Assembly: GCA_964401115.1 (NCBI GenBank)
Contig: CAYNXD010000025.1
Span: forward strand, 1 to 62,792
Direction: 5' to 3'
Length of the DNA: 62,792 nucleotides
DNA from: an uncultured Candidatus Poseidoniales archaeon
GTDB lineage: Archaea; Thermoplasmatota; Poseidoniia; Poseidoniales; Thalassarchaeaceae
Shown here: positions 26,138 through 31,406 of the stretch, one piece after another
Numbering within the stretch: position 1 is the first letter of the stretch
How the letters are laid out: each line of letters opens with the position of its first letter
Program-made: the position numbers and the translations under genes
The notes under the pieces: model-generated
Seen by the model: the letters and a program-made list of their open reading frames with translations, nothing else
What the model was told of the DNA's origin: nothing
The model's database searches: none

Positions 26138-27088
26138 TCAAATTCCCTTTCGGAATAAACGGCTGTGTCCGTTAATACCTCGAATTGCGTCATTATATCC
26201 TTCTAGAGCACCTATCCAGAGTGCAGCACTCCATAGCAAATAGTTACGGAAAATCAAAACACATATCATCATTAAAATTAATGAAATTAAAGAATCAACA
26301 ACTCCGAAAATGACGGAGATGAATAGTAGTGGTAGAATAATCATAACAAATTTTCCATCGGAGGTAAAATCATGTTTAATCCTTGGATATTTTCTCATGA
26401 TTCTAATGTGCGCGCGCGCATCTCTTCTTCGCTTTTGTAGAAAATGTCCGAGATTATTCTCTGCAACATGATCAACAATAGCATCAGGTACGTAGCGAAT
26501 AGTTCCCCCAGATTCTAATATCTTCATTGAAACTTCCATGTCTTCAGCGTGAAACCATTCTGGATCAAAGCCACCACGTGAAATTAACGAATCCCTCTTG
26601 AACATGGAGCACGGCCCATTTGCTAGAGTGGCTTTCTCTCCTCTTTTAGAATACTTGTTCGCTACAGAAGTAGCCCTAAGCCTACTCACTGATGTTCTAC
26701 CTTCATCAAATAATACTCTTCCTGTTACTGCTTCGAACCCTTCACTCGAAGCAAATAACTTCTCAATCCAATTTGGCCTTGGCTTACAATCAATATCTGT
26801 AATCGCGACCCATTCACCATTTGCTTCGTTTAGTGCGCGATTTCTTCCTGCAGAGAGTCCAAGCTGCTTCTGTGAAATGACTCTTACAGAGACTTCGCCT
26901 GAAATTGGTTCCAAATTGTGCCACTTCTGGAGAACTTCAGTGCCACCGTCAGTTGAACCGTCATCGACTGCAATCACTTCAATTGGGTGGTATGTCTGAG
27001 CACAGATGGCTTTCATACAGTGATCTATCCACCGTTTTCCATTTCTAACACAAACTGTAATTGAAATTAGTGGATTGGTCAAAATCAC
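26138..27088 (-). CDS. Glycosyltransferase family 2 with C-terminal TM helices
   Basis: EVIAVDDGSTD, GLSAGRN, ITDID (DxD), GGFD...AED. The GTG 27088 start overlaps the upstream stop and follows GGAGGT. Confidence 0.88.
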   Translation of the reverse strand: MILTNPLISITVCVRNGKRWIDHCMKAICAQTYHPIEVIAVDDGSTDGGTEVLQKWHNLEPISGEVSVRVISQKQLGLSAGRNRALNEANGEWVAITDIDCKPRPNWIEKLFASSEGFEAVTGRVLFDEGRTSVSRLRATSVANKYSKRGEKATLANGPCSMFKRDSLISRGGFDPEWFHAEDMEVSMKILESGGTIRYVPDAIVDHVAENNLGHFLQKRRRDARAHIRIMRKYPRIKHDFTSDGKFVMIILPLLFISVIFGVVDSLISLILMMICVLIFRNYLLWSAALWIGALEGYNDAIRGINGHSRLFRKGI

Positions 27089-28104
27089 ACCTCCCGTGTG
27101 AATACATCCAGTAATCTCCTGCAATTCTTTTTAGTTTCCTCTGTAGTAATTCTAAGGACCACGCCCTTTCCCGGTTGCCCGTAAACTAATGCACATCCAA
27201 GGGGCGCAATTAGGTGGATAATTAGTGGCGCCAAATCTTCTTCACCATTCACTACTACTAACGTAGGCTCACTATTGGAGAGAGCCACTTTGGTTGCCAG
27301 TTTCAAATCTGCTGTAATTACTCCTGGGGGGCTAGTGCAGGTCGTTAATGAGGTGAATACAGTTCTATCCAAATCTGCGGCAGGCGCCCATGGCTCTCGT
27401 TTGGTCATTCCATCTACAAATGCGATGTCTGGGACAATGTTCATTTCAACTAAGGTTTGGACGCAAACATCCCCAACTGCAATTAGCTTTGGTGAGTTGT
27501 CTTGAATAGTTGCAATTGCTTTTTTCATTGCTATTGAGGTGTTTGATTCTGGTCCCTCGAAAAGCGTTCCATAGGGCTTTTTCAATTCATCATCCAATAT
27601 TTCGGGCATTCTCTGATCTATGTACATTTCAGAGTCTCCAAGCCAACTGGAACCATCTCTTCCAATTTGCCCAGCACGAATTCTGCTAGATGATATGATA
27701 TTACCATCTGAACAAGAAACGTGATCCGCTTCAATAATTGATAAGGGGGGCAATCCTCTATGCTGGCGCCTAGAATTGATGTCTTCGCAAGCAGATATTG
27801 TTTCAGGGGTACAGCCAATAGCATCAGCATCCTCACAGGTTGAGGCTGGACCAATCGAATCATTCAGGAGATGGATTGTAAGATTTTCAGAATAACCAGA
27901 TTCTTCAGCCCATAGCAAAATCTCATTCTTTCGTGCCTCCCAACTCAGTATCAGTGGATTCTTTTTCTGTGCTAATTCATCACTGATTAGCCAAACTTGC
28001 ACAGTTTCAGATTTTTCTAGACAGGTAGTTAGAAGGTGCTCATGGCCAACATGAAAGCGGTCAAAAGTACCGCCGAGTAGACATAGCGAGTGGTGCCCCA
28101 TCAT
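27085..28104 (-). CDS. coaD: Bifunctional phosphopantetheine adenylyltransferase / GTP-dependent dephospho-CoA kinase (DUF359) fusion
   Basis: N-terminal GGTFDRFHVGH and ISSSRIRAG. C-terminal ELKKPYG, AVGDV, VDGMTKR, GEEDL, YGQPGKGVV. Confidence 0.88.
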   Translation of the reverse strand: MMGHHSLCLLGGTFDRFHVGHEHLLTTCLEKSETVQVWLISDELAQKKNPLILSWEARKNEILLWAEESGYSENLTIHLLNDSIGPASTCEDADAIGCTPETISACEDINSRRQHRGLPPLSIIEADHVSCSDGNIISSSRIRAGQIGRDGSSWLGDSEMYIDQRMPEILDDELKKPYGTLFEGPESNTSIAMKKAIATIQDNSPKLIAVGDVCVQTLVEMNIVPDIAFVDGMTKREPWAPAADLDRTVFTSLTTCTSPPGVITADLKLATKVALSNSEPTLVVVNGEEDLAPLIIHLIAPLGCALVYGQPGKGVVLRITTEETKKNCRRLLDVFTREV

Positions 28105-28154
28105 TACTTCGTGTTAGTAGGGCCTCAATCAAACCTACGCTGAAAATCGAAGAA

Positions 28155-28431
28155 AAATGTGCCCCGGGGCGTAACGAACCACCTCATCGCCTCTCGGCTT
28201 GGAGGTTCTGACCCACCCCGGGACGTCTGTCGGGCGAGTGGGTGGTCCCATGAATCATTCCGCGCACAGCAGTCCTATGGGGACCTTCTCACCCTGCCGC
28301 CATTTTGCACCACAATTCATTCCCAAAAGGGTCACTGTGGCCTTCGAAGGCGGCGATACCCCGAACTTGGTACCACAGTTCATCCCCCGCCGGCGAAGGC
28401 CAGGGTCCGTGTGGTGTTGCTGTCGGGGCAT
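28155..28431 (-). ncRNA. Four-hairpin archaeal H/ACA pseudouridylation guide RNA with K-turns
   Basis: Four consecutive lower stem / pocket / upper stem / K-turn hairpins: 28430-28357, 28354-28296, 28294-28231 (followed by ACA) and 28224-28161 (followed by ACA, then UUUUU). The pockets are complementary to conserved 23S rRNA segments. A TTCAA box lies 24 nt upstream. Confidence 0.85.
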
Positions 28432-28476
28432 TTTTTCAGCCACACGGCCCCTTCTTGAATGCTATCATTCTAGATT

Positions 28477-31116
28477 TTAGAGCTGGCGCTGAATTTTTTC
28501 ACGTAATCCCGAATGGAATCCACTCTTTCGGGCTGCAACTCTAATCGAAACTTCTGGACAACCCAAAGTAGTCTCGGAAGCGTTGAACTCGGGCCATTTG
28601 TCAAGTGGTTGTAGTAACCACCCGATTAATGGGTGAGTATTTCCTGTATGTGGTAATTGATTTTTTGAAACTGCAAATAAAGCATTTTGCAAATCAAATA
28701 GTTCGCCAACCCCTATCAATTTTGAATCACTTTCAATTCCATGTAAAATTCTCTCAAGCCTTACAATTAATTCAGTTGAGCAACCAGGGTGCTCAACAAT
28801 GCCAACTCCGGGAATTGTATGTTCTTCTCCCGGTGATCTGAATAGGGCGGCAGCCCATGGAATTTCACAAGATAACAACTTCTCTCTTCCATCAGCCAAC
28901 TCGGCCATCCTGACGAACAAATCAGGAGATAATGGTGCCCACCATTCTATCGGCAATGCAGCGATATCCTCAACCTCTTCAATACTTGGAATTCTTCCAT
29001 CATTGGCCATTCCAACCAGTGCCTGCCATCCACTCAAAGTCTTAGAATTGGTTGTAGAATAATTTAGTAATTCAGCCCAATTAGAATCTAACTTTCCTTG
29101 TTGGGAAAGCCAGTTTAATCCACAAAGTGATGGGACTATATTGCTGGGTGGCGATTTGGTAAGGGATATTGGCCCCCATTTAGCTAAATCTGATGACAAT
29201 TCTGGTGGCAACCACGCAACTTGGGAAAGAAGGGTTGAGGCTAGCCATGACTCTGCCTCATTGTCCAAAGATTGTGAATCTACCAGGGTTCTGAGGCGAA
29301 GGGATAGATCGTATTCTTTCCTGATCCTATCTCCAATAAATTTCATGGCTTTTTCTTGCCATTCATGTGGTGCGTGACCTGCAATTTCAGGCAAATTTTC
29401 AATCGGAACGAATTCGTGCGAAAGAAGTTCAATCCACTCTTTTCCTATATTCCGTCCTTGTCTTCTCCACATCTGCCAACGATTTTCATCGGGACATGCA
29501 ATCCAAGCAGATAGTGGGTCCGCTGATTCAATTCTGTTCGACCAATCACTATCACCTACCGGGTACCTCAATACTGCTGCGAAGAGTCTCATTTCGGCTG
29601 TCGATTCCTCTGTGGCATCAGGTGGTGTAGAATCTCCTGCGGCAACAACGGCTGTTTGAACAGAATCTAATAATTCAGAATAATTTCTTGGGGGTTTCCA
29701 ACTAGGGGGTGGTGAAGTAAAACTAGGCGGTGGCTTGGAAGACATCTTGCAGGCCAATTCAACATCTCCTGCTAACTGGAGTCTGAACCATGAATGAGGT
29801 CTGATTGGGTCCGGTCTAAGTGTAGGATATGGCAGTATTTCATCGGGCTCGTTATTTAGGATAACCATTCTTGTCCTATAATCAGAAAAGAGAGTATGAA
29901 TTTGGTGGGAATCATAGTGGTTAGGTGGGTATTGCATCACTATTGGAGTGTTTATTTCCCTGCTAATCGACCAATCAATAAGTGATAGCCAGGCATTGTT
30001 TGACATGCCTTGAACATCAAGTAAGGTACTTTCGTCACCACTCAAATCTGACCATTCTCGATTTGGCCAATCAGACTGGAATCGCCGCCATGTGGAATCT
30101 TCAACTCTTGTGGTGCCGCTTCTCGTTTTTCTGCCCTTACGAATGGCTTCCATTAATCCATCCAAACGATGTTTTCTTTCTACTTCTGATAATCTAGGGT
30201 GGGCTCTATTAATCCATGATTCGAGGATTGATAGTGGTAGCGAATCACCTTCGCGTCCAAGAAGCGAAGCTTCTGCAATTACCATAGCGCCTTCAGTGGA
30301 TGAAGCCAGCAAACTCGTAGTTGAAAGTCGGTCGGTTAGAATGGCACAAATTGGAGATTGGGACCGGAGTGGGGGCACAGATTCGTGAGCGACTCCTAGG
30401 TTCCAGGATTCGGAAGAACCCATGGGCACTGGTAAATCTGGCCATTCAGATTCAATTGGTTCTCCAAACCAACTACCTATCGCTAATCTCAAGGATTGCC
30501 TAGGGTCGAGCAACCTCGCCCTTAGCAATCCAATTTTCGGGACATCTTCCACCCAATCAGCAAGGGATGTGGTTTGCTCATTATTGGGGGGGGCCACGGG
30601 TTGTAAATTTGTTACATCATACCATCTGACCTCTGCCTCTCTAGCGACTGTCCAGAGCCATTCGGCTTTGACCCCTTCATTTCCACTGTACTCTTCATCG
30701 CCTCCATCAAATGGCATTTCACCGCTCCGCGGTAGGGGAATTAGGGAACTATTCAACGATTTGGTGTAAGCAATAAGAAGTTGGGGGCCATCTTTGGCCA
30801 GCAACATTCCTGATGCCCAATCTGGGATGTCATCAATTCTTACTGACGCCAACCTCGCTAATTCATCAGAAGTCAGCAACTCCCATCCAGCGGCAGTCAA
30901 GTGTTGTTTAGCACCTCGCTGGCTAGAATCGGAATCAGATTGAACCAACCCTTCTGCCCGCATCCGCTTTAATTCGGCTGATGCATGAGGTAATCGTAGG
31001 CCAACGGCTTTCCCGGCCACGCTAACAGTGGAGGGTCCATCTGACAGGTGATCGAGAAGCCTACGTCGATAACTACCGCGAATTCGTCGATTAGGTCCTG
31101 CTCTAACGCCCCCCAT
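28477..31116 (-). CDS. Large uncharacterised protein with an N-terminal winged helix (ArsR/MarR-like)
   Basis: RRRLLDHLSDGPSTVSVAGKAVGLRLPHASAELKRMRAEGLV. The remaining ~780 aa are Trp/Pro-rich and unrecognised. The start (ATG 31116 vs 31185) is uncertain. Confidence 0.7.
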   Translation of the reverse strand: MGGVRAGPNRRIRGSYRRRLLDHLSDGPSTVSVAGKAVGLRLPHASAELKRMRAEGLVQSDSDSSQRGAKQHLTAAGWELLTSDELARLASVRIDDIPDWASGMLLAKDGPQLLIAYTKSLNSSLIPLPRSGEMPFDGGDEEYSGNEGVKAEWLWTVAREAEVRWYDVTNLQPVAPPNNEQTTSLADWVEDVPKIGLLRARLLDPRQSLRLAIGSWFGEPIESEWPDLPVPMGSSESWNLGVAHESVPPLRSQSPICAILTDRLSTTSLLASSTEGAMVIAEASLLGREGDSLPLSILESWINRAHPRLSEVERKHRLDGLMEAIRKGRKTRSGTTRVEDSTWRRFQSDWPNREWSDLSGDESTLLDVQGMSNNAWLSLIDWSISREINTPIVMQYPPNHYDSHQIHTLFSDYRTRMVILNNEPDEILPYPTLRPDPIRPHSWFRLQLAGDVELACKMSSKPPPSFTSPPPSWKPPRNYSELLDSVQTAVVAAGDSTPPDATEESTAEMRLFAAVLRYPVGDSDWSNRIESADPLSAWIACPDENRWQMWRRQGRNIGKEWIELLSHEFVPIENLPEIAGHAPHEWQEKAMKFIGDRIRKEYDLSLRLRTLVDSQSLDNEAESWLASTLLSQVAWLPPELSSDLAKWGPISLTKSPPSNIVPSLCGLNWLSQQGKLDSNWAELLNYSTTNSKTLSGWQALVGMANDGRIPSIEEVEDIAALPIEWWAPLSPDLFVRMAELADGREKLLSCEIPWAAALFRSPGEEHTIPGVGIVEHPGCSTELIVRLERILHGIESDSKLIGVGELFDLQNALFAVSKNQLPHTGNTHPLIGWLLQPLDKWPEFNASETTLGCPEVSIRVAARKSGFHSGLREKIQRQL

Positions 31117-31406
31117 AATTCGCCCTCTTCTGACACCTGAATAGCAGGCTTGTTGAACGGGGTGTTGTTGCAGTACTTCAATCATTTCCTTAGTTACAAT
31201 TAGTTACACATTTCCATTGGAGAAGAAGTGGTTTTTCTAACTCACCACAAATAATAATCAAATACCCCTGAATTATATGTCACATTATGTAACTGCATTA
31301 GTAATCGGTGGCAACGGTTATATCAGCGAGAGCATTCCCTTGGCTCAGACGGCGATTTGCGACCTGCACAGAGACGTCAAATGACATGGAGAAAAGAGGT
31401 GTAAAA

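Follow-up and report, generated by a model that had tools for sequence, protein, structure and literature searches.

The 62,792-nucleotide (nt) stretch of contig CAYNXD010000025.1 from an uncultured archaeon of the order Poseidoniales (called here the window) very probably carries a single minus-strand small RNA (sRNA) gene that specifies a four-unit box H/ACA-type pseudouridylation guide, three units of which derive from the archaeal sRNA Pab40 while the fourth has been added in front of them. The whole predicted sRNA, of ~275 nt (28153..28431, minus strand), consists of four hairpins (HP1 to HP4) and ends in an ACA with a U-run behind it; it is defined by its fold, its conservation, covariation and RNA contigs. 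A first-pass annotation of the window had proposed a four-hairpin H/ACA guide aimed at the functional core of the 23S ribosomal RNA (rRNA). This proposal is supported by the fold, by the covariation of the stems and by matches to the rRNA; its implication that all four units are canonical holds for HP3 and HP4, which keep an ACA box, but not for HP1 and HP2, which have none. It named no targets for HP1 and HP3 and made no link between HP2-HP4 and the Pab40 family.

Fold, covariation and anatomy of the four hairpins

The minimum-energy fold of the minus strand of 28145-28445 contains exactly four hairpins (-135.3 kcal/mol, z = -3.85), and none of 100 dinucleotide shuffles folded as well. Each of the four units is composed of a lower stem, a pocket (internal loop), an upper stem of ~10 layers and a kink-turn (K-turn) at the top. 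By BLAST against 61 related genomes, the stretch was detected in 33, the window's own counted, with 31/36 genomes in family f1, 0/2 in f2 and 1/22 in f3. The 29 distinct f1 copies were aligned (alignment A1, to which the counts out of 29 given below refer); one copy interrupted by a contig end, with 116 nt left (L024), was left out, and three weak matches did not contain the locus.

RNAalifold, run on A1 with no structure supplied, recovered all four hairpins; of its 53 pairs, 33 show compensatory changes. When a hand-written H/ACA structure of 75 pairs was laid on the alignment, 85.5% of the cells paired, compared to 34.7-49.3% after the 3' partners were slid by 1-3 columns. The first-pass annotation had named covariation as a check, and the stems do co-vary across these 29 relatives, with both-sided changes in 44 of the 75 pairs versus 13-24 in the slid controls. 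None of 500 shuffles reached any of five measures for this structure, and every one of its 14 helices is supported, with 70.7-96.2% of cells paired. It should be noted that the window sequence served as the source of the structure and that the rows of A1 are related, which leaves some bias in its favour; the gap to the controls is large.

All stems listed in the first-pass annotation are present on the minus strand at their place. HP1, the extra 5' hairpin (28357..28430; lower stem 28423-28430/28357-28364), has the stems UGCCCCGA/UCGGGGUA and ACCACA/UGUGGU, a pocket made of CAGCAAC (28416-28422) and ACCAAGU (28365-28371), and a K-turn with GA at 28406-28407 and UGA around 28380-28382. HP2 (28296..28354), the counterpart of Pab40 motif 1, has the stems GCCGCC/GGCGGC and GCCACAGU/AUUGUGGU and the pocket UUCGAAG (28342-28348)/GCAAAAU (28302-28308), and a single A joins it to HP3. 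HP3 (28228..28294), the counterpart of Pab40 motif 2 and of stem-loop 1 (SL1) of the Haloferax volcanii sRNA sR-h45, has the lower stem GGGUGAG/CUCGCCC, the pocket AAGGUC (28282-28287)/ACCACCCA (28239-28246) and an ACA box at 28228-28230; its upper stem, first read as CCAU/AUGG, is there but is one pair longer (CCCAU/AUGGG). HP4 (28158..28224), the counterpart of Pab40 motif 3 and of sR-h45 SL2, has the stems GUCCCGGGGU/GCCCCGGGGC and GAACCUCC/GGUGGUUC, the pocket GGGUCA (28209-28214)/GUUAC (28171-28175), and an ACA box at 28158-28160, 15 nt past the closing pair. The guide bases that pair with the predicted targets coincide with invariant columns of A1, namely GCAAC/ACC in HP1, CGAAG/GCAA in HP2 and GGGUCA/GUUAC in HP4.

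A K-turn of the form GA...(3 nt)GA was found in every hairpin, in agreement with the first-pass annotation, including the exact HP2 arrangement GA-CCC-UUUU-GGG-AAU-GA and the AA variant of HP4. The GA dinucleotides of HP1, HP2 and HP3 are invariant (29/29). On the 5' side of the HP4 K-turn, GA is found in 22/29 copies and AA in 7/29, including the window, and the 3' side is GA in 28/29. The pocket and the sheared pairs are separated by 10 layers in HP1, HP2 and HP4 (eight positions plus two G.A layers) and by 9 or 10 in HP3, and PMC4652768 describes a '10 base-pair GA stem' in canonical motifs. As judged from this geometry, all four units have a putative L7Ae site, with the K-turn standing ~10 layers beyond the pocket. 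An ANA box located 13-17 nt past the closing pair of the upper stem follows HP3 in 29/29 copies (ACA, 16 nt) and HP4 in 29/29 (15 nt in 28 copies and 13 nt in one). In the window, AUC stands after HP1 in place of an ANA box. Canonical motifs carry the box 14-16 nt beyond the pocket top on the 3' side; HP3 and HP4 conform to this, whereas HP1 and HP2 are 'H/ACA-like'.

The apical part of HP1 past the K-turn carries a CGCCGG motif that is almost invariant across f1 (28389-28394 in the window, minus strand; A1 columns 39-44), whereas apical loops of H/ACA RNAs are normally free to vary. The HP1 copies of f2 and f3 lack this extension, which in the window's genus reads CGCCGGCG and is self-complementary. 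In a genome of the same genus (G002), the 23S and the 16S rRNA each contain a single copy of CCGGCG, the complement of CGCCGG, and nothing ties either site to HP1.

Kinship with Pab40 and predicted 23S rRNA targets

No Rfam family matched anywhere in the window at gathering level. In a relaxed search, 28154-28354 matched HgcG (Pab40, RF00064) with 40.9 bits (E 9.8e-10) over model positions 58-275 of 276, and an f2 relative scored 34.5 bits against the same model, below the cut-off of 77. The model positions 1-57 form an unpaired AT-rich leader, as seen in the alignment of the f2 relative, and the Pab40 motifs therefore correspond to HP2, HP3 and HP4, leaving HP1 without counterpart. HP1 alone, compared to Rfam at E up to 10, matched no family, the two chance matches both lying on the other strand. 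The RNAs of this family from Thermococcales and Archaeoglobus (Pab40, Pf7, Pho40 and Afu4) contain three guide units in the same order as HP2-HP4, share with them the guide strings CGAAGG...GUGCAAA, GGUCCCC...ACCC and GGGUYAG...GUUAC, have a K-turn in each unit and a terminal ACA, and have the same predicted targets for the first and third units according to PMC2377435. They differ by the absence of HP1, here in front, and HP2, of motif 1 type, is not followed by an ACA here. On the basis of sequence and order of units, HP2-HP3-HP4 is the counterpart of the three-motif Pab40/Pf7/Afu4 sRNA and not a new kind of RNA.

To search for targets, the complete 23S and 16S rRNAs of G002, a genome of the same genus whose copy of the guide RNA is 89% identical, were used as reference, since the window's own assembly (G000, 72% complete) lacks parts of the 23S. 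Numbered as in G002, that assembly holds 23S positions 1-1498 on contig C17 and the equivalent of 2536-2781 on C48. Its rRNA operon is broken at contig ends (C17:2969-4474, C48:1-246 and C87:1-665), with 23S ~1499-2535 and most of the 16S missing. The HP1 and HP3 sites are both present on C48, where the HP1 site is identical. Escherichia coli numbers are from an alignment of the G002 23S with E. coli rrlH.

The HP4 pocket pairs with GUAAC-UA-UGACCC at G002 U1918, with 5+6 Watson-Crick pairs, a score reached by 1 of 2000 shuffled pockets. The same-genus 23S contains GUAACUAUGACCC, whose unpaired U falls on E. coli U1915 in helix 69 in the alignment, exactly as the first-pass annotation had predicted. 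The HP2 pocket pairs with UUGC-UA-CUUCGA at G002 U2491 (4+6 pairs; 9/2000 shuffles). Here the predicted position was right, the target U aligning with E. coli 2496 (a C in E. coli), but the predicted string was not: the UUUGC version is absent from the same-genus 23S, which reads CUUGC-UA-CUUCGA, and the relaxed scan finds the site with one pair fewer, the fifth pair failing because the target has a C (C.A mismatch). The HP1 pocket pairs with GGU-UU-GUUGCU at G002 U2601, corresponding to E. coli column 2606, four bases 3' of A2602 (3+6 pairs; 28/2000 shuffles). PMC7991803 gives three pairs per side as the minimum for guide-target pairing, and each of these three pockets has at least three on each side.

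These sites can be compared to those guided elsewhere. PMC2377435 assigns position 2588 to Pab40 motif 1 and 2016 to motif 3. By a constant offset rather than by alignment, the HP2 site would correspond to the pseudouridine (Psi) 2588 of motif 1 and the HP4 site to the 2016 of motif 3. The same offset would place the HP1 site at the U adjoining Psi2697, made in Pyrococcus abyssi by motif 2 of Pab35 (HgcF), within the same stretch 3' of A2602; the position next to Psi2697 is described as 'frequently pseudouridylated in eukarya' (PMC2377435). The likeness with HP1 is functional only, as Pab35 motif 2 belongs to a different sRNA, is followed by an ANA box and has no detectable sequence or Rfam kinship with HP1. 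The HP2 region (28292-28355, minus strand) also gave weak Rfam matches to two eukaryotic H/ACA snoRNAs, the trypanosomatid TB11Cs5H3 (23.4 bits) and SNORA21 (20.2 bits). The guide strings UCGAAGGCC...GCAAAA are common to the three, which suggests that the same rRNA site is guided in eukaryotes.

The target of HP3 is less direct. The register of its upper stem is fixed by a C-G to U-A switch in nine sequences, which defines the pocket strands as ..GGUC and AC-N-ACC.., all bases but N being invariant. The strictly canonical pattern GGUNGU-UN-GACC has no match in the rRNA and two in the whole genome (contigs C42 and C82), and the matches of a free-register scan were dropped, as they break the hairpin's own stems. 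When pairing starts from N (guide position 210, 14 nt from the ACA), the target is GGGUU-UA-GACC at G002 U2581, equivalent to E. coli U2586, with 5+4 Watson-Crick pairs in the 10/29 copies where N = A; 33/2000 shuffles equal this score. The invariant U171 is accounted for by this pairing alone (GACC/GGUC). PMC2377435 expects the U2586 site for motif 2 of Pf7 and Afu4 and equates it with Psi2621 of Haloarcula, and sR-h45 SL1 makes Psi2605 in a UUU-A context (PMC7075261). U2586 is ranked ahead of the A-loop (E. coli U2554 or U2555), which HP3 might guide instead or in addition, a possibility that we hold to be real though clearly the lesser. In many relatives the 3' guide strand ACAACCC(C) can form eight contiguous pairs with GGGGUUGU of helix 92, engaging the invariant A208 and C209 that the U2586 pairing leaves free, and the A-loop site (A. 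fulgidus 2601 = P. abyssi 2647) was the one first proposed for Afu4 motif 2. The authors of PMC2377435, where this proposal is found, rejected it on structural rules, and on the 5' guide side the A-loop offers one contiguous pair (G-C, followed by a C.U mismatch) against the minimum of three (PMC7991803). The two pairings rely on complementary invariant bases, so that a dual target of HP3 is possible, with U2586 still placed first.

The tandem of HP3-ACA-HP4-ACA has the same order and the same targets as sR-h45 of H. volcanii, whose SL1 acts at the UUU-A site (Psi2605, E. coli 2586) and SL2 on helix 69 (PMC7075261); the homology of the sR-h45 units to stems II and III of Pf7 had been proposed earlier (PMC2584109). 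sR-h45 contains two units separated by a 56-nt linker, whereas four units with linkers of 1-7 nt are found here. In addition, sR-h45 SL2 leaves UNUN unpaired and makes two pseudouridines, whereas HP4 pairs with the second U, so that only the 1915 equivalent is predicted.

By analogy with the known archaeal mechanism, L7Ae would bind the K-turn and Cbf5-Nop10 the lower stem of each unit, and the two pocket strands would pair with the 23S rRNA so as to flank an unpaired U-N, placing the U in the active site of Cbf5. The predicted sites would be U1915 in helix 69 for HP4, 2496 beside the peptidyl-transferase ring for HP2, 2606 for HP1, and U2586, possibly with the A-loop, for HP3. The window genome encodes Cbf5 (310.8 bits, over the cut-off), Nop10 and two L7Ae-family genes.

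Transcription and genomic context

The guide RNA lies in a 372-nt gap between two genes of its own strand. The stop of a 902-amino-acid (aa) open reading frame (ORF; 28477-31185, minus strand), for which no Pfam family was found at E up to 0.001, borders the gap upstream of the sRNA. On the downstream side the gap is bordered by the start of a 339-aa gene of the coenzyme A (CoA)-synthesis type (27085-28104, minus strand), whose product joins a cytidylyltransferase-like domain (residues 9-105) to DUF359 (residues 216-335), both of the CoA-pathway type. A TATA-like element, TTCAAGAA (28452..28459, minus strand), preceded by a purine-rich stretch, is centred ~25 nt before HP1, and the block RRGNAUUCAAAAGG is kept across the f1 alignment; from the usual position of archaeal TATA boxes, it is likely the promoter of the sRNA. 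The U-run (28153..28157, minus strand) lies immediately 3' of the last ACA, a T-rich stretch follows the ACA in most relatives, and the run likely acts as the transcription stop. A further block, GUAGG(A/U)UUGAUUGAGG (28115-28140, minus strand), which is conserved within the genus, lies between the U-run and the 339-aa gene and is probably the promoter of that gene itself.

Parts of the guide RNA stretch were found in 20 RNA-library runs, and four runs from four marine metatranscriptome studies were compared with 27800-28800. Eight contig pieces were obtained, all within 28141-28420. Complete contigs among them measure 272 nt (28141-28413), 251 nt (28161-28411) and 220 nt (28201-28420), and these three bridge the HP1-HP2 junction; another, of 179 nt (28216-28394), has the same sequence as the window. 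In these four runs no contig was found on the flanks (27800-28140 and 28421-28800), which contigs cannot prove to be silent. This pattern fits a discrete and abundant RNA that includes HP1. In run X3, a high-depth RNA contig matches both ends of 28262-28384, with 123 other letters replacing the 121 in between, and probably represents this RNA in a less closely related organism of that sample.

The position of the region between two same-strand genes, the mechanical ORFs of 62-99 aa that overlap it, and the occurrence of the same CoA-related gene ~255-330 nt downstream of HP1 in two relatives might suggest that it is not an RNA gene at all, being instead a structured 3' untranslated region belonging to the 902-aa gene, a leader at the 5' end of the CoA gene or a small coding region. 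We consider this highly improbable: substitutions in A1 follow base-pairing and not codons, insertions and deletions do not come in threes, the RNA contigs end within the gap and reach neither gene, a TATA-like block stands before the region and a U-run after it, and the region is homologous to HgcG/Pab40, a known stand-alone sRNA.

Distribution of the RNA and the units without a box

The Rfam HgcG model returned one match in 151 genomes of the order, with none over the cut-off and the window's own copy missed, its filters being too strict for a study of distribution. A covariance model of HP1 (R1) was built from 24 sequences of f1, f2 and f3. R1 found one copy of HP1 in 110/151 genomes of Poseidoniales (f1 71/74, f3 38/74, f2 0/2), the f2 misses being due to filters, as the f2 source copy reaches 35.1 bits when searched directly. 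Inspected by eye, the copies from f2 and f3 show the same succession of four hairpins. When a sample of the phylum was searched, R1 matched 18 genomes of the order and, outside it, 4/126 genomes weakly (E 9e-4 to 6e-3); no hairpin array was seen by eye at these four loci, which were taken as chance matches. A model of HP3+HP4 (R2) matched 64/151 genomes of the phylum, comprising all 25 of the order and 39/126 outside. Seven of these outside loci, from other Thermoplasmatota (L095-L101), were inspected by eye and by folding: four have three hairpins of the HP2-HP4 types, with ACA, AAA or AUA after the first one, two have two hairpins and one has two plus a stub. HP1 was found in 0/7. These two- and three-hairpin forms also escape the Rfam HgcG model at genome scale. 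As far as these sequence searches reach, the additional 5' hairpin, HP1, is confined to Poseidoniales. The simplest history would be a widespread two- or three-unit ancestor that gained a fourth 5' unit in the order and, at least in f1 and f2, lost the box that followed HP2.

Several points weigh against a guide RNA with four working units. An ANA box is found after HP1 in 1/29 copies and after HP2 in 1/29, so that only HP3 and HP4 keep the ACA, and the double guide of H. volcanii needed the ANA of its internal box for its 5' stem-loop in vivo (PMC7075261). The 3' guide strand of HP1, on the side reported to matter most, makes only three pairs. At HP3, N is a C in the window's genus (13/29 copies), and pairing with U2586 then needs a C.U mismatch or three unpaired bases. 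The 23S stretch with the HP2 and HP4 sites is absent from the window's own assembly, Gar1 was not found in this genome, whose 72% completeness keeps this from being evidence of absence, and the HgcG score of 40.9 lies below the gathering cut-off of 77. RNA contigs give neither the strand nor the true ends, and RNA libraries may carry DNA. To our knowledge, no pseudouridine has been mapped in Poseidoniales, and all the sites are predicted.

The missing boxes bear most directly on HP1 and HP2. Whether they lost the box or never had one, these units would have to load Cbf5 by means of their K-turn and lower stem, perhaps with help from adjacent units. We give about even chances that both are fully active without ANA, Cbf5 being placed by the K-turn with L7Ae-Nop10, by the lower stem and perhaps by the neighbouring particle in the packed array, where 1-3 nt separate successive lower stems. 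Alternatively, only HP3 and HP4 would be working guides, as an sR-h45-like double unit, and HP1 and HP2 would be chaperone-like modules binding L7Ae or rRNA, or decaying relics. Besides the near absence of the box, this alternative is favoured by the description of ANA as needed for Cbf5 binding (PMC2377435). However, the pocket bases of HP1 and HP2 are invariant while their stems co-vary, relics would not retain compensating lower stems of 6-8 pairs, and the pockets match sites that are pseudouridylated elsewhere, namely the Psi2588 of Pab40 motif 1 and a position next to Psi2697 (PMC2377435). Furthermore, in single stem-loops the ACA box is dispensable for typical targets (PMC7075261). We therefore regard a guide reduced to HP3 and HP4 as unlikely, and keep the four-unit guide as the preferred reading. 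H/ACA-like sRNAs of Pyrobaculum likewise consist of non-canonical guide hairpins with a K-turn, 14% of them without ANA or NCA box (PMC4652768); they differ in being single units that have lost the lower stem, whereas the lower stems of HP1 and HP2 persist and co-vary, and both hairpins stand in a tandem array.

The usual archaeal range of one to three hairpins, given in the first-pass annotation, is indeed that of the literature. According to PMC2377435, archaeal H/ACA sRNAs contain one, two or three motifs, with three in Pab40, Pf7, Pho40 and Afu4, and PMC7991803 describes mostly one hairpin and 'in rare instances' two or three. In a limited literature search, we found no four-hairpin archaeal H/ACA RNA and no guide RNA of Marine Group II (MGII). 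An abundant 229-nt non-coding RNA of MGIIb, Tan1, has been reported in PMC5069720 with no function assigned; it could be the four-hairpin RNA or another one.

Relative to the one-to-three range given in the reviews, the four hairpins and the two box-less units are new, and they stretch the archaeal H/ACA RNAs from three to four hairpins per molecule. Outside Thermococcales the Rfam HgcG model misses the family, so that annotation pipelines leave the gene blank. The RNA also offers a natural test of the need for ANA/ACA in internal units, as HP2 keeps its box in other Thermoplasmatota and not here. If HP1 and HP2 are active, internal units could do without the box that they are thought to need. 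The RNA would then be an order-wide, natural example of H/ACA guiding by units that lack the box but have an intact lower stem, and would form the first archaeal H/ACA ribonucleoprotein with four particles. For Marine Group II, which is among the most abundant archaea of the surface ocean and has no cultured member, it places four or five predicted pseudouridines, each open to testing, in the catalytic core of the ribosome.

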